Virus record (IMG/VR): IMGVR_UViG_3300020404_000006
From: a virus
Direction: 5' to 3' (one strand)
DNA length: 64,000 bases
Every line of letters starts with the position of its first letter. Position 1 is the first letter of the stretch. The notes under the pieces were generated by a model. The model was given only the letters and a program-made list of their open reading frames with translations, made no database searches and was not told where the DNA came from. This document shows, one piece after another, positions 29,201-42,900 of this stretch. A program made the position numbers and the translations under genes.

Positions 29201-32200
29201 TGTTCTCACCAGCACTCAATGACTTACCGTTTGCAGATATACCAGTACCAAACAGTCTGTTGTCATTTATTGAGTATGATGTATCAATACCAGATGTGAT
29301 AATACCAACGTTGAAAGTAATACTTCTAAGTGGTAAACCATCCTCTACACCATCAACAACTAACTTTCTGTCATCAAACAGTGGGTTTCCTGTTCCTTGA
29401 ATTACGAATCCGTTGCCTGGAACAAGTGCGTGGTTGTTATCTGTTCTGACTGTTGTAAGTCCTGTCTCTCTCGAAACATCAATGTAAGTAACACCAACAC
29501 CAATGTTTGCTAAGTGATAAGTTGGTTGTCTCCTATCATCTCTACCTGTAAAGTATGGATCAAGATTTCTTGAAGTTCCAATCTCAACAGAAATAGACTT
29601 GGATGAAGGAACATCAACAATTTTGAATGTACCATTCAACTTAGGATCTTCAAAACCAGAGAGATTCAATCCATCTCCTATGTTTGTAAAGATAGAGGTA
29701 ACTGATACCACACCAGCGACACTAGGAGCACCAGCAGGGAATGAAGATACAGTCATGGTATTACCGATACCATAACCACAACCACCATCTAATAGTGATA
29801 CACCAGTAATTGTACCAGCAGCAGAGACTGTGATCTTAGCAGAAGCATTTCTACCGAGCAAAGCAGAGTTCTCAAGGTCTGCAGCATAGATTACAGTTGC
29901 AATACCTGATCCATTGTTGTATCCAGCGCCAGGATTGACAATACTTAGACCCTTCACAGAGTTAAAGTTATGTTCAACATCAGTGAATAGAGTAACAGTT
30001 GTGTTACCTGTACCAGTAATTACTGCACCAGTAGCAGCAAAACCTACCTGTTGTCCCTGCATGAAGTATCCAAGAGACTCTTTGGTGATAGATTTCTTCT
30101 TATCGTTAGTGATAACTTCACCGATAACTGCCGCACTAGAATGAGTGATAGTGGGTTCTGGATCAGAATCGTAGTTATCTCTGTCTTGTTGTGGATATAG
30201 ATTTCTTACGTCTTGCTGGAAAGACTTAGTAGATACACCAAATCCAAGATCCTTATCAAGTGGGATAGATGCACAAACCATAGTGATGTTGTACACACCA
30301 TCTTGTCCAGATGTGCCAGGCACATGAGGTTTGTTCTCTTGTACTCTGTAAACTGTGAAACTATCGAGTGCCTTTGATCTCTGAACTGTGGGTAATGCTT
30401 CGATCTGTTGTTGAGTAGTTCTCTGGTTTACCTGATTAAGGAATAGGCCTGGATCTGTATTGATACCAGTGACAGTGAACTTCTTAGTTGAAATAACATT
30501 ATCAACACCAAACTCACCATTATATCCTAATCTAAATGTTCCTAGACTATTGTTGACACTATCAATATTCCTGATAGTAACAATATCGCCTTTCTGTAAT
30601 CTATGTGGTTCTTCAGTTGTATATGAAATGGTTTGAGCACTGTAAGATGCCGTCTTGATAATCTTGACGTTCTTAAGTTGAGTTGGGTTACTCAAGTCTG
30701 CACTCAAGAATGATGCACTACTTACACCAACTGTCTTAGACTCTTGTAGAATGAAACCAGGCTTCGGAGCACGAGCATTGATATGTTCTTTTGGAATGAC
30801 ATATCTAATTCTATACAGTCTGTCGAGTAGAGATCTATTGTCAACTCTTCTCTTGAGGAATGTAGTTCCTGTTTCCTCTCCAATCACACCAACACCAATA
30901 GTATTGATAGCAGAGAAGATAGTATTGTCAGCAGTGCTTGAAGAACCAGTTAGATACCAACCACCAACTGTGTTAGGAATACTATTAATAGTATAAGTGG
31001 TTTCATCATACTGCATTGGGTGGCCTGGATCGCCAGGATTCTTATCTGATACAGTAGATCTTATTCTTAACTTACCACCACCATTTGAGATACCAGTGAT
31101 AGGTCGTCTAGCAATAGCATCGTTGAATGTAGATGCTAATTGGATTCTGTCCGCAGCAAGTGTACCACCAGAGATTGCAAAGTAAATCTTATCGTTGATG
31201 ATACCACTTGGAGTTTCACCAGTATTACTGAATACTCTGACCTTCTCACCATTTACAAGTTGATGATTGGTCTTGAACTGTAATACGTTAGAAATAATGG
31301 CGTTGACACCAGAGTTTCTAATAACTTCATACTCTTTGAATCCAGAAGTTCCAATACCACTAGGAACTTGCATGAAGATAGGAGATTCATATGTCTCCTG
31401 TACTGCCTGTCCAGATAAAGTATTAACCAAACTCAAGAATAATTTGTCATCAACTCTTGCACCAACTTTGAATGAATCAATCTCTGCTGGAGGAACTATC
31501 TCTTCGTTGTTGTAACTAAACAGATAGAATCTATCAGTTACACCAACACCAATAGTTTTTCTAGTGTCAATAGTCAACCAAGATACAGTAGAGTCCTCTC
31601 TTACAATTTCTCTTGGTGGAATAACGTGAGTAATGTAACCTACATCATCTCTGTCGAATGATACTGGACGGAAACCTGTAGACTCAAGAGCAGTCTGTCC
31701 AAAGTTAGAGTTAGAGTTGGTAATTGATGCGTCACCGCCTCGTTCTGCGTGGAAGTGTCTAGCATATGCAATAGCGAACACTGACACCAACTGGATAACA
31801 GAATTATTCCTAGTCCTCATGTGTGAGGTTTCATAATTCGGTTTGTATATTGCCCTTGAGTTAGAGTGTAGTGGTTTATCTGACTCTGATACTGTAGTAG
31901 TATCATTAAAGATTGCAGTTGTAGGATTATATAAGATGAAAGCGTTGTCGTCTTTCTGAATTGAAATACCAGTGAACTGAGCACAAACCATAGATTTGAA
32001 ACCAGTTGCCTTGTCTCCATCACAATCCAATCCGTTCATACCAAATACGGAACGGAGTGATACGTTAAAGATATATGGAGAAGCAGATCCAACAGTATCA
32101 GACTCAACTACAACACTAGAGTTCTGAATTTCTTGTGGTGTTGGTAATGCGTTAGCAGGAACATTTGGGGTTTGAACTGTGAACTGAGTATTACTTGTAA

Positions 32201-33215
32201 CTTCATCTACAAGGAATGAACCATTGTAGGAGTTGATTGCAGTTGTAATACCAGTAATCAAGACAGGAGTATCTTTGAATAATCCATGTGACTTGTTAGT
32301 ATTGATAGTCAGAGTTGCCGTTGGTGTGTTACCATCACCAGCCCTGATAGATGTAACACCAACTGGATCAGTTTGTAAGTCACCAACGATTCTAAACTCA
32401 TCAACACTAGGTTCAAAGTCATCAAATGTAGGATAGTCTCCAACTGGTCTACCAGATGAGTCTCCATATGCCTTTGCAACCTTGAAGTAGAACATATCAA
32501 GGTCTGTCAATCCACTGTCTGTGCCATCAATCAAGACGTTGTTTACACCATCAGCATAAGTAAATGTTGCTAACTTATGGTGTGAGTATGAAGGGGTTTT
32601 TCTATTACTATCATAATCATAGTATGCAAGCTTGGTGATGTCTGCATCAAAAATGGTGAAGGCAGTGAAATAACAAGTACCTGTAACTCTAAGAACACCA
32701 CCATATTCCATGGCATCATTCTGAGGATCAGGAACATAAAGTGGTCTTAGTTTGGTTTTACGAAGATCTAAACCAATGATAGATGTACCACGAGGCATGA
32801 TAGCACCACCTTCGGTACTATTATACTTGTATAGTTCGTTATTAGGATCTAGAACATCAAAATTACTTTCTGTTGTAAACTGTTCTAGAGAAGTTACTTG
32901 ATATCCAGCGTTCTTTCTGCACTTAAATTCTGCGTTACCACCACTATTTGTAACAGTAAATCCAGGCCTGTTGTCAATATAGTGTACGCCAGGATATGCT
33001 AAGATAGTTGTTCTGTCTATCTTATCGTTATTCTTACCAACTTGATATGAAAATCTTGCAGCCTCAATCAGCGCCCTCTGTATAGTTTTGAAGGGTCTTG
33101 TCTGAGAGTTACCTCTGTTTTCAATACTATCAGTCGCGTCAAAGTCACTAGGGTTTACATAGAGTATATTACCCTCAGCGTTCTTTAGAAAGTTTTCTAA
33201 TCTTGATAGAGGCAT
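26205..33215 (-). CDS. Giant virion structural / tail-fibre protein with C-terminal peptidase S74 chaperone domain
   Basis: 2336 aa; MPLSRLENFLKN cyanophage-type N-terminus; GIST/VTT beta repeats; SDMRLKTNIEKI...VKYEKLVPVLIEAIKEL S74 signature; CTAAATA late box at 33248-33254. Confidence 0.8.
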   Translation of the reverse strand: MPLSRLENFLKNAEGNILYVNPSDFDATDSIENRGNSQTRPFKTIQRALIEAARFSYQVGKNNDKIDRTTILAYPGVHYIDNRPGFTVTNSGGNAEFKCRKNAGYQVTSLEQFTTESNFDVLDPNNELYKYNSTEGGAIMPRGTSIIGLDLRKTKLRPLYVPDPQNDAMEYGGVLRVTGTCYFTAFTIFDADITKLAYYDYDSNRKTPSYSHHKLATFTYADGVNNVLIDGTDSGLTDLDMFYFKVAKAYGDSSGRPVGDYPTFDDFEPSVDEFRIVGDLQTDPVGVTSIRAGDGNTPTATLTINTNKSHGLFKDTPVLITGITTAINSYNGSFLVDEVTSNTQFTVQTPNVPANALPTPQEIQNSSVVVESDTVGSASPYIFNVSLRSVFGMNGLDCDGDKATGFKSMVCAQFTGISIQKDDNAFILYNPTTAIFNDTTTVSESDKPLHSNSRAIYKPNYETSHMRTRNNSVIQLVSVFAIAYARHFHAERGGDASITNSNSNFGQTALESTGFRPVSFDRDDVGYITHVIPPREIVREDSTVSWLTIDTRKTIGVGVTDRFYLFSYNNEEIVPPAEIDSFKVGARVDDKLFLSLVNTLSGQAVQETYESPIFMQVPSGIGTSGFKEYEVIRNSGVNAIISNVLQFKTNHQLVNGEKVRVFSNTGETPSGIINDKIYFAISGGTLAADRIQLASTFNDAIARRPITGISNGGGKLRIRSTVSDKNPGDPGHPMQYDETTYTINSIPNTVGGWYLTGSSSTADNTIFSAINTIGVGVIGEETGTTFLKRRVDNRSLLDRLYRIRYVIPKEHINARAPKPGFILQESKTVGVSSASFLSADLSNPTQLKNVKIIKTASYSAQTISYTTEEPHRLQKGDIVTIRNIDSVNNSLGTFRLGYNGEFGVDNVISTKKFTVTGINTDPGLFLNQVNQRTTQQQIEALPTVQRSKALDSFTVYRVQENKPHVPGTSGQDGVYNITMVCASIPLDKDLGFGVSTKSFQQDVRNLYPQQDRDNYDSDPEPTITHSSAAVIGEVITNDKKKSITKESLGYFMQGQQVGFAATGAVITGTGNTTVTLFTDVEHNFNSVKGLSIVNPGAGYNNGSGIATVIYAADLENSALLGRNASAKITVSAAGTITGVSLLDGGCGYGIGNTMTVSSFPAGAPSVAGVVSVTSIFTNIGDGLNLSGFEDPKLNGTFKIVDVPSSKSISVEIGTSRNLDPYFTGRDDRRQPTYHLANIGVGVTYIDVSRETGLTTVRTDNNHALVPGNGFVIQGTGNPLFDDRKLVVDGVEDGLPLRSITFNVGIITSGIDTSYSINDNRLFGTGISANGKSLSAGENNLAGRSSYFYTGISTTINAPLTSTDTTITLSSTEGFRRGDYCIINGEVVRFTSDNINNILRGQFGTLASPAITGTTIKKIKVLAMELRRPSILRASGHTFEYLGYGSGNYSTSLPQKQDRVLSDQETLSAQKKELDGGTVVYTGMNDSGDFFTGYKKLSSITGEEEVLEAPVFTYVGDDAEAETIKRASGVFDEVLIRESLTVEGGDNNNRTSQFYGPVNMTEKLTNTSADGIETVNLSLRGDAPQGKVFTVGISTPLTAARSGDISFVGVPNAGGYLGHIFAEGEWRRFGAVSQERDRSFYKFDQIGIGQSGVGIFNFKDSLEVNGVAKIKDLFVSGIVTFAANQSFAGVSYDTLVIKKNANFWGYNTTGGISYDGIPWEQHGFYTQVHEAGTSRLYNAEFVGTYVTFKPASAIHIEGPYKSTFSGVSTITGTLEVGNLECDGGTFNGTFVNAINSGIDTLSVKKDLYATAGIITDLHVTVGVVTNGLYADIGITTLSHVGTQYVNENRVFTGITTNLQVTNSATIANETVTNATITNLIVPNTGSADIEVANIDQLTSTDITFTDDLIGPDAYFSNDVDSDGLLTRYIGSKYGPNPGVESEQLTIFANAGLYTCITGFAMTMARINMSPGGDGLAAPKITADVGIITALSAGGNANMSIDAGPAGQIKSFQFESIATNVPPIKTSSSVKCVNLNADLLDGLTMIDSNWTSGASIMGRDSNGSTKVKDITATGIFQGGSGAFPNGLTAGGSNITGSSTINNLTVTGSFTASGGFSGNADTATLASNIAIGSNRVPYNNANNSTTSSSNFTFNGTTLSVAAINCSSITGNITGNAGSASQVNVSGASGSLRVMLGGSSGNQSIRSDGGLTFNANSNNLSVSGDITAFASDMRLKTNIEKIQGAVAKVCKLSGFTYEFNEEGRSLRLPEGKQLGVSAQQVQEIFPEAVAVRPIDEYLTVKYEKLVPVLIEAIKELKTELDDVKKELNNHCGCEGCHGKA

Positions 33216-33272
33216 TGCACCAACAACCTATAAAATTTCTTCTAACCTATTTAGACAGGATCAAATGACTAT

Positions 33273-33974
33273 CTATAAGAACAGTCTTTGACTCAACCTC
33301 ATTTCCTCTTCATACATGCCTGCCGTAACAAATGGTGCTTGCAACATATCAGCGGGAATAATAATCGCTCTATTGTATTCCATACCAAACATCATACATT
33401 GTTTCCATGCAAGAACTGATTCATAAACATCTTTTCTAAGTGAGAAAGCATCAGCATCTGCATACATATTCTTCATGTCCTCTTGAACAGAAGTCTTTCC
33501 AGCAAATGACCAAACATCAGTGCCACCGCAGTTGGGCATATTTTTATTGAGAAAAATTTCTATGGTAAATTGAAATGGACTTGGGTTTTCTGCATAGTAA
33601 ACTTGATGTGGTAGTAACTGTAATGGTTGTTTAGCAACAGTATCTTGGTCAATCCAATCCACTAGGAATGGCATGAAATCCATGTTCTTCTCTACAAAAC
33701 TTCTATCTGTTGGTCTACCCCAGAATTGGTCATCATAGAGTAATTCTTTGAATAATCTTTCAGTGTTCTTCCGTAACTCCTCAGTTTCAAGAACTGATCT
33801 AGTTCCTGAGTGATGATTAACTAATGGTATATCTTCTCTCTTTGGTAATCTAAGTGCCAGATTCCTTATCTCATCAGGATTCTGGTAAAAATTATCTATC
33901 AACATAGCAGACCTATTCTCAGGTCCTATCTCATTGATAGCAACAACTTCTAACTTTTCACTTAATTCAAACAT
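33273..33974 (-). CDS. DUF6445-like 2OG-fold protein with degenerate metal ligands
   Basis: MLIDNFYQNPDEIR, GGTDVW, MEYNRAIIIP; HxD replaced by HQV and distal H by Q. Confidence 0.55.
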   Translation of the reverse strand: MFELSEKLEVVAINEIGPENRSAMLIDNFYQNPDEIRNLALRLPKREDIPLVNHHSGTRSVLETEELRKNTERLFKELLYDDQFWGRPTDRSFVEKNMDFMPFLVDWIDQDTVAKQPLQLLPHQVYYAENPSPFQFTIEIFLNKNMPNCGGTDVWSFAGKTSVQEDMKNMYADADAFSLRKDVYESVLAWKQCMMFGMEYNRAIIIPADMLQAPFVTAGMYEEEMRLSQRLFL

Positions 33975-34155
33975 CTTTGTTTCTTTCTTCTACTAAATGT
34001 TCAACTTCTGAGGCAACTTTGTCCATAACCTCTCTCACATTAGTTCCTGATCCAGAGGTGTGGTAGTAATTCTGCCCTTCGGGGGCATAATGTCTGGTGT
34101 GAAGTGTCCAATGCCACTCTTTAATATCTTTTGAATACCAGAATTGTAATCTCAT
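33967..34155 (-). CDS. Small hypothetical protein
   Basis: 62-aa ORF just downstream of the tmRNA. Confidence 0.55.
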   Translation of the reverse strand: MRLQFWYSKDIKEWHWTLHTRHYAPEGQNYYHTSGSGTNVREVMDKVASEVEHLVEERNKDV

Positions 34156-34173
34156 GAGTGTTTTAATTTATAT

Positions 34174-34478
34174 AGGAGGGGGCAAAGCCCCCACAGTCAC
34201 TTGGTTAACAAGGAGTGACTAATCCCCGATTGCCCCTTAGGCAGTGACGAGTTCGTCAGTGCGGGCAAATTCTCTTGTGAGAACACGAGAGAATGCTACG
34301 ATGTTGTTCGCAGCGGTGTCGATGTTATTAGCATCTGTGTTTTGCTTATCCAAGCAGGTTTTCAGTCATGTTCCGTATACCCTGTCGAAGCCTGGGCATC
34401 CCCTTGAATGGAGATGAGGGGAATCGAACCCCTGTCCAGAATGTCGGTGACACCACCTACATGTCTTTTTGAGTCATA
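34174..34478 (-). ncRNA. ssrA: Circularly permuted (two-piece) tmRNA
   Basis: Minus strand reads acceptor piece ...GGACAGGGGTTCGATTCCCCTCATCTCCA (ends 34408), a 4-nt spacer, then coding piece AGGGATGCCCAGGCTTCGACAGGG (starts 34403) with G3:U70; tag frame ANNIVAFSR... like cyanobacterial tags; outer ends approximate. Confidence 0.92.
34237..34332 (-). other. tmRNA tag reading frame ANNIDTAANNIVAFSRVLTREFARTDELVTA*
   Basis: Translated by hand; GCT at 34332 and GCG at 34311 are in frame; TAA at 34239-34237. Confidence 0.85.
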
Positions 34479-34486
34479 CATCAGGA

Positions 34487-35077
34487 CTATACAATCCATG
34501 ATATCCACGAATATCTGACTCCTTTTGTAACTGGAGTCACTTCATGTGGAAACAAGTACAATGCTGGAAATACTAACACACTTCCCTTCTTTATATTGAC
34601 TGTGTGTTCCTTCCAAAACCTAAACTCACCTCCTTCAAAATCGTCATTCAACACACCCACCACACTGGTAACAGGTATGCCTCTAAATTGTCCTTGAAAG
34701 AAATCTCGTATATGATCGTAGTGAGGACTCAAATAATCGCCAACATTATACTTATTAAATTTTATACCTGAGCAAGCTTCCCAAAATGAACCGCTAGTTT
34801 GACCCTCCTCAACATCATAGTAATTATATTTTTCATGAAAAGCAGCAAACAACTCACCATTTATATGTGGTTGTATTATGTTTGTAGCCTCTGGAGCAGT
34901 TACGGTTGATTGCATATTTGATTCTTTATCAATATCAACCTGTTCAAAGTCCTGATACCACGAGAATTCACCCCATTCACGAGAATCTAAAAGAGATACT
35001 ATCTGATCACATTCCTGATCAGATAGCAAATCATATTCAAATATGTGGTCTTTAAGATTCGGGTATTTTAGGACCAT
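34487..35077 (-). CDS. 2OG-Fe(II) oxygenase, prolyl-4-hydroxylase-like
   Basis: LSPHYD ... DDFEGGEF ... LFPHEVTPVTKGVRYSWISW. Confidence 0.85.
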   Translation of the reverse strand: MVLKYPNLKDHIFEYDLLSDQECDQIVSLLDSREWGEFSWYQDFEQVDIDKESNMQSTVTAPEATNIIQPHINGELFAAFHEKYNYYDVEEGQTSGSFWEACSGIKFNKYNVGDYLSPHYDHIRDFFQGQFRGIPVTSVVGVLNDDFEGGEFRFWKEHTVNIKKGSVLVFPALYLFPHEVTPVTKGVRYSWISWIV

Positions 35078-35201
35078 CTTTTAACACCTTCTTGCCAGTT
35101 TGTTTGGCAATATATGCCGCTAGTTCTGGAGTTTCTTCCCACTCCCAGATTTGGTTATGTTGTGGATTCTTCTTTTGAATCGTGAGTGTGCGTTTTACCA
35201 A
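35052..35201 (-). CDS. Small protein (WEWEETPEL motif), TTG start
   Basis: GGGAGG SD upstream of TTG at 35201; 49 aa. Confidence 0.45.
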   Translation of the reverse strand: MVKRTLTIQKKNPQHNQIWEWEETPELAAYIAKQTGKKVLKDGPKIPES

Positions 35202-35457
35202 TTTCAACCTCCCTAGATAGAACTTCGATTTCTTTTTCAAGGCCAATGATCCGAAGTTCTGCATCATTAGCCGATCTTTCCAGAGCCCTAACACTGGAAG
35301 AAATTTTTGCAATCTCAGCACCGAAGGCATCTATGTTTTGCAAAAGTAAATTGTTGCCAAATGTTTGAGGATGTCCCTTCTCTGCGTAGGCAGTATCTTC
35401 TACTTCCTCACACTTCTTAAGATATTCCTCCTTTGACATTCTGTTGTTGTCAGTCAT
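35155..35457 (-). CDS. Coiled-coil hypothetical protein
   Basis: ORF track; coupled to the upstream gene. Confidence 0.55.
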   Translation of the reverse strand: MTDNNRMSKEEYLKKCEEVEDTAYAEKGHPQTFGNNLLLQNIDAFGAEIAKISSSVRALERSANDAELRIIGLEKEIEVLSREVEIGKTHTHDSKEESTT

Positions 35458-35981
35458 GAGTATTCCATGTAAATGTTTCCAGATATTGTAGTTCCCTCAT
35501 TGCCTGAGTTGACCATGTGCATGAGGAATGATGGGAATATAATTATACTCCCAGGCTCCAGATTCGGTTTATAGTCTAACGGAAACTGGGGCAAAGTGCA
35601 ACCAAAATGGTTCTGAATGTTATGAATTGAAGGATTAAAAAATGCAGTTCTTGATGTCACATCAACATATATCACATAACTCCATTGACTTTTAGGATGT
35701 ATGTGAGCATCTTGGTAATCATGTTTCTTATAAACATTCCTCCATATATGTCCAAACCTTGCGTTCTTTCCCATCAGTTGTGCTGAATAGAGATTTCTCT
35801 CTACCACACCAGATAAGTAACCCCAGATTGATTCTGGAATCTCTTCTTGTTTCTGCGATGAGAAACTAGACATAACTCCAGAATCCCAAGTGGGTTCTAA
35901 GGGAGCAAGAGGAATACAATCAAATTTAGTTACATCAACCTGATCATGAAAGATAGGTATTCCAAAGATTTCTTGTTTCAT
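35454..35981 (-). CDS. Putative 2OG-Fe(II) oxygenase (TIGR02466-like)
   Basis: QDAHIHPKSQWSYVIY ... IFPSFLMHMV ... TISGNI. Confidence 0.8.
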   Translation of the reverse strand: MKQEIFGIPIFHDQVDVTKFDCIPLAPLEPTWDSGVMSSFSSQKQEEIPESIWGYLSGVVERNLYSAQLMGKNARFGHIWRNVYKKHDYQDAHIHPKSQWSYVIYVDVTSRTAFFNPSIHNIQNHFGCTLPQFPLDYKPNLEPGSIIIFPSFLMHMVNSGNEGTTISGNIYMEYS

Positions 35982-36610
35982 TCTGAAGGTAATGGTACAG
36001 TTCTCATTGTTTTGTAGACAAGACTTGCTCTAAGTCCACGATATACTTCATTTGGTGGCATACCATGATGCCATATGTTCCCCTTGAAGAACACAACTCT
36101 GCCTGGGGCAGGGTCTACACCTTGCCATTCATCATTTAATTTATACTTTATCTGTCCTCCCCACTCTGGTTGCCAATGTTTATTAATATAGTAAACAAAA
36201 CTTATACCGTTATCACATGTGCAATCTTGATGAGGCGTTGTATTATGTATCCACTGTTGTCCATTTATCATTATCTCACCAAGTTCCACTTCAAATGGAA
36301 GTGTGTGCATAACTGCACTGTAGATCATTTTGAAGGAACTATCCTGTGCAATATCATTTCTGTCTGGAGGAAATATTTGTTGTTTCAATGCTGGTGCTTC
36401 TTCCCATGTTGGGTCTGCACCGACATCTCTACCATCTTCGGCATATCCACTGGTATGTCCCCAGAACCAGTTGTATCCTGTCATCACCATGTCATGTACT
36501 TGGTGAACAAACCAAGGCGGAAACATGTAGTCTACAACATAGACTTCATCCTTAGTCAGATCGTACTGTGACCAATCTAAGAATTGCTTTCTGCAATCAA
36601 TGTGTATCAT
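35978..36610 (-). CDS. 2OG-Fe(II) oxygenase
   Basis: TPHQD ... WQPEWGG ... IWHHG ... LRASLVYK. Confidence 0.82.
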   Translation of the reverse strand: MIHIDCRKQFLDWSQYDLTKDEVYVVDYMFPPWFVHQVHDMVMTGYNWFWGHTSGYAEDGRDVGADPTWEEAPALKQQIFPPDRNDIAQDSSFKMIYSAVMHTLPFEVELGEIMINGQQWIHNTTPHQDCTCDNGISFVYYINKHWQPEWGGQIKYKLNDEWQGVDPAPGRVVFFKGNIWHHGMPPNEVYRGLRASLVYKTMRTVPLPSE

Positions 36611-36612
36611 AG

Positions 36613-36810
36613 TTAATAAAGCCAGTCCTCATACTCGCCATCTACATCTAGTTCAGCGATTCTTCTCTCTTCTAATTCTCTCATGTCATCATGTAGTCTC
36701 TCCACAGGTGTTTTTTTCTTGTGCATTTTCTGATACTGATTTGCAGCAAGATTGTCTAAAAAATCATTCATCATAAGTATAATGTTGGTTTTGAGATTTA
36801 AAACTTTCAA
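36613..36810 (-). CDS. Small hypothetical protein
   Basis: ORF track. Confidence 0.45.
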   Translation of the reverse strand: MKVLNLKTNIILMMNDFLDNLAANQYQKMHKKKTPVERLHDDMRELEERRIAELDVDGEYEDWLY

Positions 36811-36882
36811 CCTGTTCTTTGGTTTTAAAGAACTTAAAAAGTTTTACATCTGAATGTTCTTTAAGTTGATACTTTACCTTAA

Positions 36883-38523
36883 TCATAAGTCATACCCAAA
36901 CTCTGCCCAGTTGTAATCTTCTATCGCTAATGCGTTTTTTTCGTTTGTTTTCTGTCTAGAATTGATGTATCCTATTGCTTGTAGGAAACCCCAAGCCCTA
37001 GTCTCATCTTCATTCCTCAGACTCCTCATAGCTTTCGCTCCATTTATATAGTGGTTTATTTTGGGTACGTTTGCGTTGATCAATTCATTCATTTCTTGTG
37101 TTTTGACCACGATTGCGTTATCGTATGTACCACAATCGCCTGGTATAGATCCGCCTGGAGGAACATTAGCGTAACCAATGGCATTTCCACCAGCATCTGT
37201 ACCACCCACACCAATAAAAATTCTCTGTCCTTCTGTTGCATAAGTGGTGCTAGATGGAGAACCATCTTCATCAACTGTACTGTAGGTAGGCCAGTTGGTT
37301 GTTCCTACATAATATTCAGCTCTACCATTACCAACTGCTGGCTCTGGATCTTCAATAACCTGTCTCCATTGTGCGGTGATGTTAGGATCACCATTGTTAA
37401 TTAGATCTAATTGGTGTCCTTTTCCTATGTTTACATTCTTGGCAATACCAATCTCTACTGGGTCGATTGGATTCTTAGATGATTCAAACTGAAGATCTTC
37501 TATATCGCCTGGTCTTACAACTATGAAAGAACTGTTTATGCCTGCTGTGGTAGGTTGTTGACTCAAGTTTGCAAAGTAATAATCAGATACAATGCCAATG
37601 TAGAATGACGTTCCTATGTCCTTGTTAACTGTGATACTCACGGCATTACTCAATTCAAACACATTGAGAACCATTTGTGCAGCGGATGTAATACCTGTGT
37701 TATCAGTATAAGTTATAATACCTACAGCAGTTGAAATACCTGTGATGGTAGTTCCAGATGCAACCATCCCTCCTCCACTTTTACCTGTATCACCATATAC
37801 AAAATCTCCTACACTAAAGTGTGTAAATATACCAATTTTACCATCGGCATAAATTTTGTTATCACCAGATGTACAGAATCCAGATAGAGGATAAACCTCA
37901 GCAGGGTATGGTGTCAGTCCAAATCCAAGAACACTTGTAGCATTACCTGATGGAAATATGGTTGGATTTATAAGAGCATCAGTAATCAAATCTCCTGTTC
38001 TAATGCCAGGATTTCTACCTGTGGTAAAACCAGTTAAGTATTCTGCATCAGCGTCGAATATCACCATGGCAGTACTACCTACGTTGACATCAGCGTTATC
38101 AATAGTCTCTACAACATTAGCACCATACTCCATGTTCTTTGGATACTTGAAATACTTAGCTCCGTAGAATCCCAAGTACTGATATGTGCCAGAATCTTTT
38201 TGACACTCCCATACCTGTACTTCTACATCATCATCATCACCAAATCTACTAAAATCAGATGTCCCTACTTGAACCCATGCTAAGTCACTCCTACATCCAT
38301 GAGATATTCTCTCCAGATACGCATTTTGAACAGCCGTTATTGCTGTGTTGATGGGATCAATGAGTGGAGGTAGTTTACTATCCAGTTTAATAATTATCTC
38401 ATCGAACTCGTCAATGAGTGCATCAGTCAATGCTAACTGTTCTGCAAGAACTTTACCCTCTTGTTTTTGGGTTTCGTTACTATCTCGTAATCTTTTCGCA
38501 ATTTTCTTTGGATCAGCAGCCAT
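36883..38523 (-). CDS. Cyanophage virion structural protein (baseplate/tail operon)
   Basis: 546 aa; GISTAVG-type repeats; coupled to the gp5 region. Confidence 0.6.
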   Translation of the reverse strand: MAADPKKIAKRLRDSNETQKQEGKVLAEQLALTDALIDEFDEIIIKLDSKLPPLIDPINTAITAVQNAYLERISHGCRSDLAWVQVGTSDFSRFGDDDDVEVQVWECQKDSGTYQYLGFYGAKYFKYPKNMEYGANVVETIDNADVNVGSTAMVIFDADAEYLTGFTTGRNPGIRTGDLITDALINPTIFPSGNATSVLGFGLTPYPAEVYPLSGFCTSGDNKIYADGKIGIFTHFSVGDFVYGDTGKSGGGMVASGTTITGISTAVGIITYTDNTGITSAAQMVLNVFELSNAVSITVNKDIGTSFYIGIVSDYYFANLSQQPTTAGINSSFIVVRPGDIEDLQFESSKNPIDPVEIGIAKNVNIGKGHQLDLINNGDPNITAQWRQVIEDPEPAVGNGRAEYYVGTTNWPTYSTVDEDGSPSSTTYATEGQRIFIGVGGTDAGGNAIGYANVPPGGSIPGDCGTYDNAIVVKTQEMNELINANVPKINHYINGAKAMRSLRNEDETRAWGFLQAIGYINSRQKTNEKNALAIEDYNWAEFGYDL

Positions 38524-39377
38524 TAGGTTCCATCTCCCTCATATTCTACAACTAATTTAGGAACATCTTTACGTTCAGCACAGACTAGATAACTGCAACG
38601 TATGTTGTGAGTTTTGAAATTATGTGGATTTACTATTATACTTAATGTATCTCCTTTTGAAACAGTATAACACAAATTTTGATTAATTCCAATAGGAGTT
38701 AAATGAACTGTTATGCTATCCTCATGAACCAGATCTTTCCAATAGTCTGGCAGTTCAATCACATTCTCTCCTTTCAATACTCCTCTAACATATACACCAA
38801 CCTCAGGACCCTCAATACAAGCATGTGCAAGACGATGACCTTCTCCTTTAGATGGGTGCGGAATATCAAACTTTTTGAAAGGTGCAGCAACTGAACCAAA
38901 TGCCCCAAAACCTGCAAATATCTTTGCACAAGTTATGTTGCCACCAACTGCAAGTAAACCAGCTATGGTAGCGAATCCAGCAACATTTATATTTGCGTTG
39001 AATTGAGATATGGCATTACCAACCTTCAATCCGTTCATGGTATTAATACCATTTGTAATACTTGCGGAGTTTCTAATCGTAGCACCAAACTTTGTACACA
39101 ATCCTGTAAAGTTACTGACTGCTATGACATTTAATACCCCATAGTAATTGGATATACCATGAACCTGTAAAGATAATGGTGCTGGAAAACTCATTGGAGG
39201 TCCAATCATGACCGTTGCCATTGGAACTCCAATATTAGGAACTAATCCAAAGTATGCAGGACCATTCGCCACCAAAGTGCCAGGAAATACCTTCGGTATG
39301 CCTGGCAAAAATGATGTGTCTAGTGCTCCGATGACAACCTTGTCACCGAACATTCCTATCGAAGCCGTTGCTGCCAT
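38523..39377 (-). CDS. gp5-region structural protein (FDIPHP...EGPE C-terminus)
   Basis: Beta-repeat core plus FDIPHPSK..HRLAHACIEGPEVGVYVRG domain. Confidence 0.65.
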   Translation of the reverse strand: MAATASIGMFGDKVVIGALDTSFLPGIPKVFPGTLVANGPAYFGLVPNIGVPMATVMIGPPMSFPAPLSLQVHGISNYYGVLNVIAVSNFTGLCTKFGATIRNSASITNGINTMNGLKVGNAISQFNANINVAGFATIAGLLAVGGNITCAKIFAGFGAFGSVAAPFKKFDIPHPSKGEGHRLAHACIEGPEVGVYVRGVLKGENVIELPDYWKDLVHEDSITVHLTPIGINQNLCYTVSKGDTLSIIVNPHNFKTHNIRCSYLVCAERKDVPKLVVEYEGDGT

Positions 39378-39949
39378 TATAAGAAGTCCTTAAATCTATC
39401 GAAGGCACCGATCAAAGCGCCAAGAAATCCACCCTGTATCTTATCGGTTTGTGTACCTATATCAACTGATGATCCACCAGAGACCTCAACGAAGTTACCA
39501 CCAAGAGAAAGGTTCTTAGTACCAAGAACATTTGTGTTACTGGCATCTAAGTTGAGAATAGGAGTCTTTCCTATGTAGATTTGCTCGCCTCCTCTCATAG
39601 TAAGTTCACCAGAGGCATCAAATCTTATATTTCTACCCTTTAATAATATATCACCATCTTGAGCTTCTATCACAATATGTCCGTATGCAGCACAAATAAT
39701 TTTACTGGGTTCGTCCTCCTTTCCTCTTATACCTACAGTTTCGTATGAACATCCATTTACAACTAACTTTTGAAGTCCATTCTTATAGAAAGAAATGCCT
39801 TGGTTATTATCAGTGATTACAGAATAGTCTGTCTCTTGTCCCTTTAAGTTTCCATCAGTAATTTTGACACCAGAAGTGACACGAAAGCCTGGATTGGTAA
39901 TGAAATATTCATTATCAGTTGTACTAACAACTTTTGGTTCAGTTGCCAT
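39377..39949 (-). CDS. gp5 C-terminal-like beta-helix spike protein
   Basis: Short beta repeats (GDILLKGRNIRFDASGELT); directly downstream of gp5. Confidence 0.55.
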   Translation of the reverse strand: MATEPKVVSTTDNEYFITNPGFRVTSGVKITDGNLKGQETDYSVITDNNQGISFYKNGLQKLVVNGCSYETVGIRGKEDEPSKIICAAYGHIVIEAQDGDILLKGRNIRFDASGELTMRGGEQIYIGKTPILNLDASNTNVLGTKNLSLGGNFVEVSGGSSVDIGTQTDKIQGGFLGALIGAFDRFKDFL

Positions 39950-42900
39950 TAGTATCCACCTCCGTAGCCTCCGCCACCCGATCCACCAGACCCGCCGCCA
40001 CCAGAAGGAGGAGGACTAGGAGGAGGGGTGCTCGGCGGAGTTGATGGTGGAGTTTGTTGTTGAGGTTGTTGAGGCTGTTGTGGAGCTGGTGTAGTTTCTT
40101 GTGGGGCTGTTGTATTAACAGATGGTGTAGAACTATCAGGTGTAACGGCAGGGGCATTTGTAGTCTCCGTTGTTGTAGTTGTCTCAGTAGGACTCGCAGT
40201 TGGACTAGGTGTTGTAGTGGTTGATGAAGGAGTGTAGGTAATCACTGGTGGTTGACCTAGACTTTCTTCTTTCGTATTATATATTGTGGCGTGTGGTGAA
40301 GATATATGAGTAGGTCCTACCATCTTAACTACTTTTCCATCATCTCGTACATGAACATGGAAGTCGCCATAATATGGATTACCATTGACCCAACCAACTT
40401 GTGTTGTACGTTGACTGTAAACACAATCAACCACCTTGACAAACAGAGTTCCACCTCTACCTGACTCATCAGTTGGCAGAATTCCACCTCCAACAACACC
40501 TCCGTCTATACTTGGTCTCTCTCCAATATCTGAAACATAATCAGGACTGTATGACATAATTGGATACAATCTAGCACCAATTCCTGTTCTCGTATCTATC
40601 GAGACTGTCGGAATCTTTTTATGTTTATCTTGACACCTGATATTATTGATTCCAGCAATAGACCCTGCTGGAGTCACAACCAAATCAAAAGAACAATCTC
40701 CTACTCTACCTTTATCTCCAGAAGTATATCCAATTCCAGGCCTATAGGGAACAAGATCAGTAACAATACCAACTGCCTCACTACCAATACCAGAAACACC
40801 TCTGGTTGTAAAGTTATAGGTATCAGTTCTGGCCATACCAGCAAACTGATTATCAAAGAGATCCATGAATGAACCCTCAGACATAGAGATATAATACTCA
40901 GTATTGAATCTTAGGTCATTCTTTGGGTCTATCTTAATGATTCTATCAGATAGGAATGATATTCTATTATTATTTACATTAATTCTTTCATGTACAACAT
41001 TAGTGCCAGCTTCCGTAATGGTAACATCCCCATTACCTTTTGTTATTGGTTCATTGAATGTGATAGACAATGATACAGAAGTCTGAACACCTACTGCATC
41101 ATCAGCGGGTGTGGTAAATGTAATGAAAGGATTTTCATCATCAGTATCCTCTGTGACAGGGAATTTTGGAGGAACTACATTAGTCGAAGGGCAGTATCCC
41201 TCTCCAGGCGATAACATGTAGATGTCAACAATAGATCCATTTTCATCTATGATCGCTTCAGCATTAGCACCGCCACCATGTCTGGTCTTGTCTATAATTG
41301 AAATCTTTGGAACTACCGTATAATTTAAGCCTGGTTCTAGTATCTCTAGAGTAAGAATACTTCCATCTATAGCTGAAACTATAGGCATGAGAACAGCAGT
41401 TTTTGTTCCATCACCATGAACTTCTACCTTAGGCGGAATACACTCACTCCATGTAAATCCTGGCGGCACTGCATCACCAAGATCATCTTGTGTTTGTGGG
41501 TTCTGTGTTCTAGCAGTGCAATCAAAAAATTCGTCAGCACCCATGCCTATCATACTGAGAAGTGAGAATTTAGCTGTTGCACTATATGCTCCATCACCAG
41601 TAGTGTCTGCTGCTCCAACAAAATTTTCAAACTTCTGTAAGAATTTCATGTTGTCAAGAACTTTTCCAAATTTTAGATTTGGTTTTTCTATAGCACCTAC
41701 TCCCTGTGTCCAATCGTCATAGTCTTTACATTTTAAATTAGCACAAGCAAAGAATCCCAATATCATATTAGCATAACTACTGATCTTCGATAACAGACTA
41801 CCAACCTTACCCAAAGAACCAGTCAACCAATCTAATCCGTCTAAAAGTGGTTTTAATGCTGCGAGTATTTTATCATAGATATCTGCCAAAATATTTGCAA
41901 TGAACTGTTCAACGGCACATACGGAGGGATTCAGTGCCTTTCCTATCATATCCTTGAACATATTCAGCAACATACCCAAGAAGTCTATGTTGAAAAGACA
42001 GAATAAGATGTCAAGTATTTTTTGTAGAGCTTTTATAACAGGAGACTTCTGTGGTTCTGGTATGATCAGTGCTTGTAGATTTCTGAATACCTTTGTTACC
42101 AGAGCAATAACTTTGTCTCTGATCATATTGACTATCTTTTTAACCGCAGCAGATACTAACTTAGCAGCCTTTCTGACTAACTTATTAATATCTTGAAGCA
42201 GATTGTTTGCAGTATCAATATAAGAACCAGCAAACTCAGTAAGTGAGTTTACTGTGGTTAGAAAACTACCAATCGTATGTGCAATATCACTCAAAGGACC
42301 GTCTTCACAGCCATTGTTCATACTATGAGGACCTAGTTGAGTATTAGAAAATGTTGTTTCTGACTTCCTATCGTTAGATACACCTTCATTTCCATTCTCT
42401 AGTTCGCCTGGTGAGTTTTTCTTTTCTTCACCAACTTTATTATCTGCGTTTAATTTTGTTTGACTCTCTCCAGTTGGTGATGAGTCTCCCCCTATTGGTT
42501 TGTTTTCATCATTAGGCATGGTGGTCATCCCATCAATACCCGCTCTTCTACCTGACATTACCTTGAAGGCATTATTCTCAGCGTCTACATTATCACTCTC
42601 TTGAATAGAGGAGGTAGCATTTTGGGGACCTAATTCTGGATTTATATTCCTTGCTAATGCACCAAAGATGACTGGTTGTTGTGCCTCTTCACCATCCAAG
42701 AAGAAACCAAAGACAGTTTCTCCACCAAGCATTTTTGACTTTTCACCTATAGTCGCTCCTCCAGCACCAGAGTTGGGATCCACCATGACATGTGCCCAAG
42801 GCAATTCCGCCTCACTCATCACGGCTTCATCGAATGGGTGATAACCTATTATTCTTACTTTACATCTATATGCCCAACCCTTTTTAGTATCAGTAGACGA

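Follow-up and report, generated by a model that had tools for sequence, protein, structure and literature searches.

A two-piece, permuted transfer-messenger RNA (tmRNA, ssrA) gene of the cyanobacterial type was identified on the minus strand of IMG/VR virus record IMGVR_UViG_3300020404_000006, a stretch of 64,000 nucleotides referred to here as the window. The gene is intact and phage-borne, and its sequence features indicate that the phage has likely retained a functional version of the two-piece tmRNA of picocyanobacteria, with a peptide tag of 31 residues. Trans-translation is the main route of ribosome rescue in bacteria, and infection by T4-like phages degrades host mRNA and should yield many stalled ribosomes. 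A widespread lineage of ocean phages was found to keep its own tmRNA, with a tag systematically unlike the near-invariant tag of the hosts, and this difference suggests tuning of the pathway rather than mere topping-up.

Identity and layout of the tmRNA gene

ARAGORN, run on the 64-kb window, called positions 34146-34498 of the minus strand as a permuted two-piece tmRNA. Two Rfam covariance models were matched over their full length, with 111 bits for cyano_tmRNA (RF01851; gathering score 70; match spanning 34178-34481) and 84.2 bits for tmRNA_permuted (RF04321; threshold 47). By nucleotide comparison, the window is an S-SSM7-like T4-type cyanomyovirus: positions 30000-40000 were about 87% identical to Synechococcus phage S-SSM7 and cyanophage S-SSM6a with gene order conserved, and the tmRNA gene itself showed 94% nucleotide identity to its counterparts in S-SSM7 and S-SSM6a, with the neighbourhood likewise conserved. 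These two phages belong to the genus Lipsvirus and infect Synechococcus WH8109. Loci of Sf-FS3, S-CAM1 and S-CAM3 were about 72-75% identical to the tmRNA of the window and were likewise identified as permuted tmRNAs by ARAGORN and Rfam.

The order of the gene is permuted, such that the T-arm and the 3' strand of the acceptor stem precede the acceptor 5' strand. The 3' end of the acceptor piece (34409-34433) comprises the T-arm AGGGG-TTCGATT-CCCCT (34433-34417), the acceptor 3' strand CATCTCC (34416-34410) and the discriminator A (34409), as read from the sequence and from the T-arm and acceptor columns of both Rfam models. An intervening segment of 5 nucleotides, TTCAA (34404-34408), is predicted to be lost as cleavage of the precursor yields the two pieces, and the coding piece then opens with the acceptor 5' strand GGGGATG (34397-34403, supported by the Rfam alignment) and ends in a 3'-terminal hairpin, GGGGGC-TTT-GCCCCC (34178-34192), that was recovered by the Rfam models and RNAalifold. 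The acceptor stem has 7 base pairs (G1-C72, G2-C71, G3:U70, G4-C69, A5-U68, U6-A67 and G7-C66), of which the 3:70 pair, G34401:T34412, is the alanine identity pair. The T-arm carries GGTTCGATTCC and CCA is not encoded. Taken together, the predicted tRNA-like domain is canonical and of the alanine type.

The intervening segment of four relatives with the same tag type was found to hold a complete, nested tRNA-Asn (GTT) gene (L155:2703-2778, L185:2331-2406, L207:1865-1937 and L209:6697-6772; L-numbers denote loci of relatives, comprising phage or viral loci and the host loci L222-L341). From this arrangement, RNase P and 3' tRNA-processing enzymes acting on the nested tRNA-Asn would alone release both tmRNA pieces.

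Public records of relatives treat this stretch as a small protein-coding gene (e.g., SSSM7_025), and the 'hypothetical protein' coding sequences of GenBank and RefSeq do stop at the stop codon of the tag. We regard a protein-coding gene here as next to impossible, since a TGA at 34368-34366 closes the tag frame upstream in the window with no start codon in between, the tag frame has no listed open reading frame of at least 40 residues, and the covariance-model scores far exceed their thresholds. The present analysis corrects this public annotation. The 'hypothetical protein' coding sequences overlap the tmRNA gene in S-SSM7 (L001:1543-1761), S-SSM6a (L002:1600-1761) and S-CAM3 (L005:1459-1599), the tmRNA is annotated in none of these three records, and the overlying coding sequences of S-SSM7 and S-SSM6a are the tag frame extended upstream.

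Tag frame and resume codon

Read on the minus strand from 34332, the tag frame is GCT AAT AAC ATC GAC ACC GCT GCG AAC AAC ATC GTA GCA TTC TCT CGT GTT CTC ACA AGA GAA TTT GCC CGC ACT GAC GAA CTC GTC ACT GCC TAA. This frame (34237-34332) has 31 codons followed by TAA and encodes ANNIDTAANNIVAFSRVLTREFARTDELVTA, a tag identical to that returned by ARAGORN. It consists of a 7-codon prefix, which reads ANNIDTA in the window (34312-34332), a host-like core, ANNIVAFSR (34285-34311), a 24-nucleotide in-frame hairpin insert and a tail that ends in Val-Thr-Ala. The stop codon TAA (34239-34237) is at the homologous position in all relatives and lies within a closing helix.

IMG/VR was scanned twice, by a T-arm pattern and by a fixed tag core, and the loci fetched were analyzed with ARAGORN. 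The T-arm scan was unspecific, with many other tRNA and tmRNA types among its matches, and yielded a sample that is unbiased by tag sequence. By this approach, 115 cyanobacterial-type permuted tmRNAs were recovered on viral contigs. These represented 70 unique tag frames, and 66 of the 70 carried the prefix, which was found in 0 of 120 host tmRNAs. The motif at the junction of prefix and core, GCN GCG AAY AAY ATC GTN GCN TTC, was detected on 109 viral contigs and in none of 401 genomes sampled from the host family. A common design unites the 66 frames: the prefix A[KN]xxxxA, for which AKTSDTA and ANTSDSA are the commonest forms, precedes the core ANNIVAF(S/T)R, and a variable tail follows. Phage tags were 21, 22, 23, 28, 29, 31 or 32 residues long. 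Typical tails were STVAA, TRELATA, QAAPVAA (the host tail behind a phage prefix) and PVSPVRTRELVAA, while the tail of the window's tag type reads [VIL][LMF][TS]REF[AS]R..EL[VA][TA]A. In the 13 prefix-type frames obtained with the tRNA-domain pattern, the core varied only at synonymous third positions and by Ser/Thr at residue 8. An earlier note on the window, made from its letters alone, had described a duplicated ANNI motif. This duplication is present in the window and in L146, L150 and L207, but it is not family-wide; the feature common to the family is the 7-codon prefix.

The hosts were represented by 120 tmRNAs of Prochlorococcus, Synechococcus and Cyanobium from one scan of species-representative genomes. 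In all 120 species the tag was of 16 residues, AN[NK]IV[SRA]FSRQxAPVAA, with an Ala-Ala end, where three tags given as 18 residues by ARAGORN (VTANNIV...) were read as having the resume codon called two codons early. The phage and picocyanobacterial (RF01851) molecules are alike in their acceptor-before-coding order, T-arm, G3:U70 pair, unencoded CCA, pseudoknot-1 hairpin, position of the resume codon with an A four nucleotides before it (-4), ANNIV.FSR core, and a closing helix that extends from the FSR codons to sequence past the stop codon. By contrast, the window has a 31-residue rather than a 16-residue tag, the 7-codon prefix and 24-nucleotide insert, an end of Val-Thr-Ala rather than Pro-Val-Ala-Ala, and an intervening segment of just 5 nucleotides. 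The tmRNAs of S-SSM7 and S-SSM6a share the 31-residue design and the VTA end. They differ from the window in their prefix (AKSSDTA versus ANNIDTA, by a compensated +1/-1 shift) and in residue 17 (Ile versus Val, by a compensatory stem change from A-U to G-C). The loci of S-CAM1, S-CAM3, Sf-FS3 and about 100 IMG/VR contigs share the prefix A[KN]xxxxA, the core and three helices described below (resume hairpin, hairpin alpha and closing helix), but are without the 24-nucleotide insert and have tags of 21-29 residues. As judged by these alignments, the insert is peculiar to the S-SSM7-like lineage.

Two in-frame codons, GCT at 34332-34330 and GCG at 34311-34309, had been put forward as candidate resume codons, and both are exactly where the earlier note placed them. 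They are not equally likely. By analogy with Escherichia coli, translation very likely resumes at the first GCT, giving a tag of 31 rather than 24 residues. This assignment is drawn from the -4 A rule borrowed from E. coli, where A86 is the chief frame determinant and A86C or A86U abolish activity (PMC2481249). The counterpart of A86 in the window is A34336, and the nucleotide at this position was A in 68/68 unique phage sequences and in 120/120 hosts. The distance from TTCGAC to the first GCN was 56-57 nucleotides in phages with the standard pseudoknot-1 hairpin versus 58 in hosts, and 49-50 nucleotides in S-CAM1-type members, whose pseudoknot-1 hairpin is shorter. The first GCN has the host-like placement after the pseudoknot-1 hairpin (TGCTT-GGAT-AAGCA at 34343-34356 in the window, given by the Rfam structure line and conserved in phages and hosts) and an A-rich linker. 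At the resume site of many phage members UAGAU is followed by GCA, close to the UAGUC and GCA of E. coli.

Were translation to resume instead at the second codon, the tag would be of 24 residues and the 21-nucleotide prefix an untranslated spacer. The host-like ANNIV does start at this GCG, which, as is the host resume codon, belongs to the 5' strand of a hairpin that is closed by a 3' strand in the Ile-Val codons. This placement nevertheless appears quite improbable, as the -4 nucleotide of the second site was never A (C in 36, T in 31 and G in 1 of the 68 sequences), and C or U at this position destroys activity in E. coli (PMC2481249). In addition, it is the first GCN that aligns with the host resume codon in a collinear upstream region (TTCGAC, hairpin and A-rich linker), with the second 21 nucleotides beyond. 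The prefix is always 21 nucleotides long and free of in-frame stop codons, an internal pair of +1 and -1 indels within it is compensated, and its codons 1, 2 and 7 vary at the third position only. The second GCG is also buried in a 7-base-pair stem. A further proposal is that the RNA serves as a decoy that soaks up SmpB and blocks host trans-translation, like the molecule of mycobacteriophage DS6A that has a tRNA-like domain only. Phages do carry such inhibitory forms (PMC4131195), and the intervening segment of 5 nucleotides is unusually short and could hinder processing. A decoy function is very improbable, however, in view of the canonical acceptor stem with G1-C72 and G3:U70 and of the tag frame, -4 A, stop codon and downstream helices, which are needless for a decoy and are conserved in more than 60 unique sequences. 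The DS6A type has no tag frame, whereas the window has the full 31-codon frame and the conserved stop. The tryptic peptides predicted for resumption at the first site, which would be diagnostic of the codon used, are SSDTAANNIVAFSR or TSDTAANNIVAFSR (S-SSM7 or Sf-FS3 types) and ...ANNIDTAANNIVAFSR attached to truncated proteins.

RNA helices and selection on the reading frame

The minimum free energy fold of positions 34344-34225 recovered five helices in the tag region at -41.1 kcal/mol, compared to -23.1 ± 3.2 kcal/mol for shuffled sequences (z = -5.6), and all five helices showed compensatory changes across relatives. The first, termed the resume hairpin (34321-34335), pairs GATG (34335-34332) with CATC (34324-34321) and encloses the resume codon; it was evident from the minimum free energy fold and from alternation within the family. 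In this hairpin, nucleotides -4 to +1 pair with +8 to +12, and AGAUG/CAUCU alternates with AUCUG/CAGAU, both sides being changed in 8 sequences. The register is shifted by one base in the window's group, to GAUG/CAUC, and reads GACG/CGUC in L152 and L213. The replacement of Ser by Asp in prefix codon 4 is attributed to pairing of the resume hairpin, and the prefix of the window appears to read ...N-I because CAUC must pair with GAUG. The second helix, hairpin alpha (34295-34314), pairs GCTGCGA (34314-34308) with TCGTAGC (34301-34295) around the loop ACAACA, and is the 7-base-pair stem that contains the second GCG. RNAalifold found it in the phage alignment with 99.7% of cells paired, and 13 of 45 sequences had A-U in place of U-A at two third codon positions where the change is synonymous. 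These two hairpins replace the host resume hairpin, GCKAAC/GUUMGU.

In the hosts (L222-L341), the third base of the resume codon covaried perfectly with the first base of codon 6, as GCUAAC...GUUAGU in 70 species and GCGAAC...GU[UA]CGU in 46. The Ser/Arg split between Prochlorococcus- and Synechococcus-type tags looks, from these sequences, to be driven by the 6-base-pair hairpin that starts at the resume codon.

The third helix is the 24-nucleotide in-frame hairpin (34270-34293), delimited by alignments, which has the 5' arm TTCTCTCGTG (34293-34284), the loop TTCT and the 3' arm CACAAGAGAA (34279-34270). Its 5' arm covers the three codons for FSR and extends one base into the codon that follows, and its 3' arm is the complement of this stretch. 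The insert adds 8 codons over tags of 23 residues (FSR-VLTREFAR-T... here versus FSR T... there), and the pair at columns 61/66 was observed as G-C, A-U and C-G. A closing helix between TTGCCC (34268-34263) and GGGCAA (34235-34230) encloses the final part of the tag together with its stop codon (34230-34268). It was 100% paired with 3 covarying pairs and brings about the alternation of Phe-Ala-Arg with Phe-Ser-Arg; the ancestral form, UUCUCCC/GGGAGA, was detected in 117/120 hosts. Inside the closing helix, the hairpin TGACG (34258-34254)-AACT-CGTCA (34249-34245) encodes D-E-L-V, and its 2 covarying pairs link Asp...Val to Ser...Ala. The earlier note had placed the extra residues of the tag on two hairpins. 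Both hairpins are real, as they occur in the minimum free energy fold and are kept by compensatory changes in 17 relatives, and the extra residues can now be assigned more closely to one 24-nucleotide hairpin insert and a family-wide 21-nucleotide prefix. A candidate hairpin TGCC/GGCA with the stop codon in its loop was rejected, as it occurs only where the closing-helix strand reads TTGCCC and showed no covariation.

The reading frame was preserved throughout this remodelling. All changes in tag length, at least six, were multiples of three, and every variant ended at the homologous stop codon. In the prefix, AKTSD (ACATCTGAC) and A[KN]NID (AACATCGAC) are related by two indels, +1 and -1, with no net shift, in L216 a compensated shift from ACAAGAGAATTT to ACAGAGAAACTT restores the ELATA tail, and L146 has a clean insertion of 3 nucleotides. 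The two loop codons of the insert varied at positions 1 and 3 and always had T at position 2, such that only V/I/L and L/M/F are encoded. Frameshifts or stop codons in homologues, by which the earlier note would have recognized neutral decay, were not seen, and the frame is open despite many indels. These patterns indicate that the reading frame is under selection, as the general character of the peptide probably is too. The proposal of joint selection on RNA and peptide is borne out in that helices and frame are conserved together, but several residue changes follow stem covariation. The residue-level differences D/V versus S/A, FAR versus FSR and prefix S versus D are, by the covariation described above, by-products of stem pairing and not evidence of selection on the peptide. 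We infer that the 'rewiring' of the tag is first of all a remodelling of the RNA, constrained to keep the frame and a small, non-polar C-terminus. The locus provides a clear case of a short coding sequence in which amino acid changes are largely driven by RNA base-pairing.

Tag C-terminus and proposed role in infection

The earlier claim of a lengthened phage tag lacking the Ala-Ala end held up, with 31 residues and VTA in the window versus 16 residues and Ala-Ala in 120/120 hosts. A set of 63 unique frames of the common design, from viral contigs, encoded 45 distinct tag peptides. Among 45 distinct phage tag peptides, 12 ended in Ala-Ala and 21 in Thr-Ala, and the remainder ended in TV, LA, AV, VA or PA. 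The Thr is not fixed: Val-Ala-Ala is the end in L184 and L066, close relatives that share the tag type of the window. The last three residues of the 45 tags were limited to A, V, T, L and P, and avoided Gly, Ser and those charged residues whose codons are one step from Ala codons. The Ala-Ala end characterizes the host tag and is not needed for rescue, and the window, with Val-Thr-Ala, does not have it.

Two readings of the peptide remain to be weighed. The peptide may be irrelevant: selection would then act on ribosome release only, and the demands of RNA structure would keep the frame open incidentally. The wide differences in tails across lineages, the residue changes accounted for by base-pair covariation, and the finding that the tag template of E. 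coli can be altered with little effect on rescue (PMC2481249) are consistent with this. It is unlikely in view of the at least six length changes by multiples of three, the restoration of the frame within a few codons after each of two frameshifts, a core ANNIVAF(S/T)R that is invariant in amino acids save for S/T while its third-position changes are synonymous, and the restriction of both the insert loop codons (V/I/L and L/M/F) and the last three residues. At the other extreme, the phage tag could alter the fate of tagged proteins through slower degradation, another protease or adaptor, or the marking of host proteins for amino acid recycling. We consider this possible, on the side of doubt. 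It would fit the use of Ala-Ala in all 120 host species versus 12/45 distinct phage tags, the retention of the frame, and hence of the C-terminus, through many indels, and the avoidance of charged, Gly and Ser residues at the last three positions. In Synechocystis and E. coli the last three residues of the tag set the accumulation of tagged proteins (LVA < AAV < ASV; PMC2860132), and by analogy an effect of the Val-Thr-Ala end on degradation is plausible. On the other hand, a Val-Thr-Ala end remains small and non-polar, and its degradation may resemble that of Val-Ala-Ala, the end used by the same-type relatives L184 and L066; the sequence of the tail is largely dictated by stem covariation; and no candidate phage protease or adaptor was found, with ClpP the sole family searched. 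It is more speculative still, and rather doubtful, that T4-like marine cyanophages have evolved a tagging code of their own, in which the phage-only prefix and non-Ala-Ala tails would give tagged proteins a fate differing from that of host-tagged proteins. If true, the phage would seize protein quality control as well as ribosome rescue in infection. Natural tail variants for comparing degradation are on hand (VAA, VTA, ATA, ATV and VAV).

In the mechanism we propose, the tmRNA would share a transcript with the upstream 2OG-Fe(II) oxygenase gene and be made as a single precursor, from which the acceptor and coding pieces would be cut. The phage tmRNA would then receive CCA, be charged with alanine, work with host SmpB, EF-Tu and proteases, and free ribosomes stalled on broken mRNAs during infection, with resumption at the first GCT (34332) adding the 31-residue tag. 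Ribosome rescue may in this way be sustained while host transcripts are degraded, a role already proposed for phage tmRNAs (PMC9004378; PMC7162821). The oxygenase gene ends at 34487, inside the 5' extension that ARAGORN gives to the tmRNA, an overlap that points to a common transcript that is processed afterwards. A promoter scan gave no convincing candidate for the tmRNA itself, the count being within the shuffled expectation. No family matches to SmpB or ClpP were detected in five tmRNA-bearing cyanophage genomes (S-SSM7, Sf-FS3, S-CAM1, S-CAM3 and a 231-kb relative), so the phage tmRNA would have to use host SmpB and proteases. The nearest record, a 21-kb fragment, had neither SmpB nor tmRNA.

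Several points weigh against reading the locus as a working tmRNA with a selected 31-residue tag. Most phage sequences came from the pattern that fixes the core, such that the case for an invariant core depends mostly on the 13 prefix-type frames from the tRNA-domain pattern. The rule used to choose the resume codon derives from E. coli and not from a cyanobacterium, and in E. coli a stabilised helix in the resume region blocks function (PMC2481249). The absence of SmpB is based on the genomes of close and distant relatives rather than the window's own genome, and selection on the frame is no proof of selection on peptide function.

Permuted tmRNAs of S-SSM7, S-SSM6a, S-CAM1, S-CAM3 and S-CRM01 are listed in Table S1 of Buchholz et al. 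2022, with the tags undiscussed (PMC9004378). The literature search turned up no paper on cyanophage tmRNA that describes its tag prefix or hairpin insert, takes up the choice of resume site or compares the tag with that of the host. The gene was therefore already listed for S-SSM7, and the tag design common to dozens of ocean phages seems to be undescribed. New here are the helix-by-helix anatomy of the tag, an account of where the insert comes from and the evidence that bears on resume codon choice. The tmRNAs of mycobacteriophages (Bxz1 group), Bacillus phage G, huge phages, Melnitz and pelagimyophages are likewise phage-borne ssrA genes thought to maintain or exploit host rescue, and those of Melnitz and relatives are also two-piece. 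We know of no equivalent tag prefix reported for the mycobacteriophage, phage G, huge-phage or pelagimyophage molecules. By contrast to the tmRNA of the window, those of mycobacteriophages, phage G, huge phages, Melnitz and pelagimyophages derive from different lineages of bacteria and are of the one-piece or alphaproteobacterial type. SmpB is encoded by some huge phages (PMC7162821), unlike the cyanophages examined here.

ARAGORN detected zero tRNA genes across the 64-kb window. The tmRNA of Sf-FS3, S-CAM1 and S-CAM3, unlike that of the window, sits within a cluster of tRNA genes. A second type of phage tmRNA was observed at L113:503-804, L073:1377-1678 and L092:2457-2757. It has no prefix and encodes a 14-residue tag, AN[KN]IVSFRRTAVAV, that is shorter than the host tag and has Val-Ala-Val at its C-terminus. 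This type shares 82% identity with Sf-FS3 over the tRNA-like part, and in its 3' flank a match to the tRNA-Asp/cpeT region of other cyanomyoviruses was found. In the window, a TATAAAT that resembles a T4-type late promoter was located at 34165-34174, where it adjoins the 3'-terminal hairpin of the tmRNA and precedes a small open reading frame on the minus strand (33967-34155).

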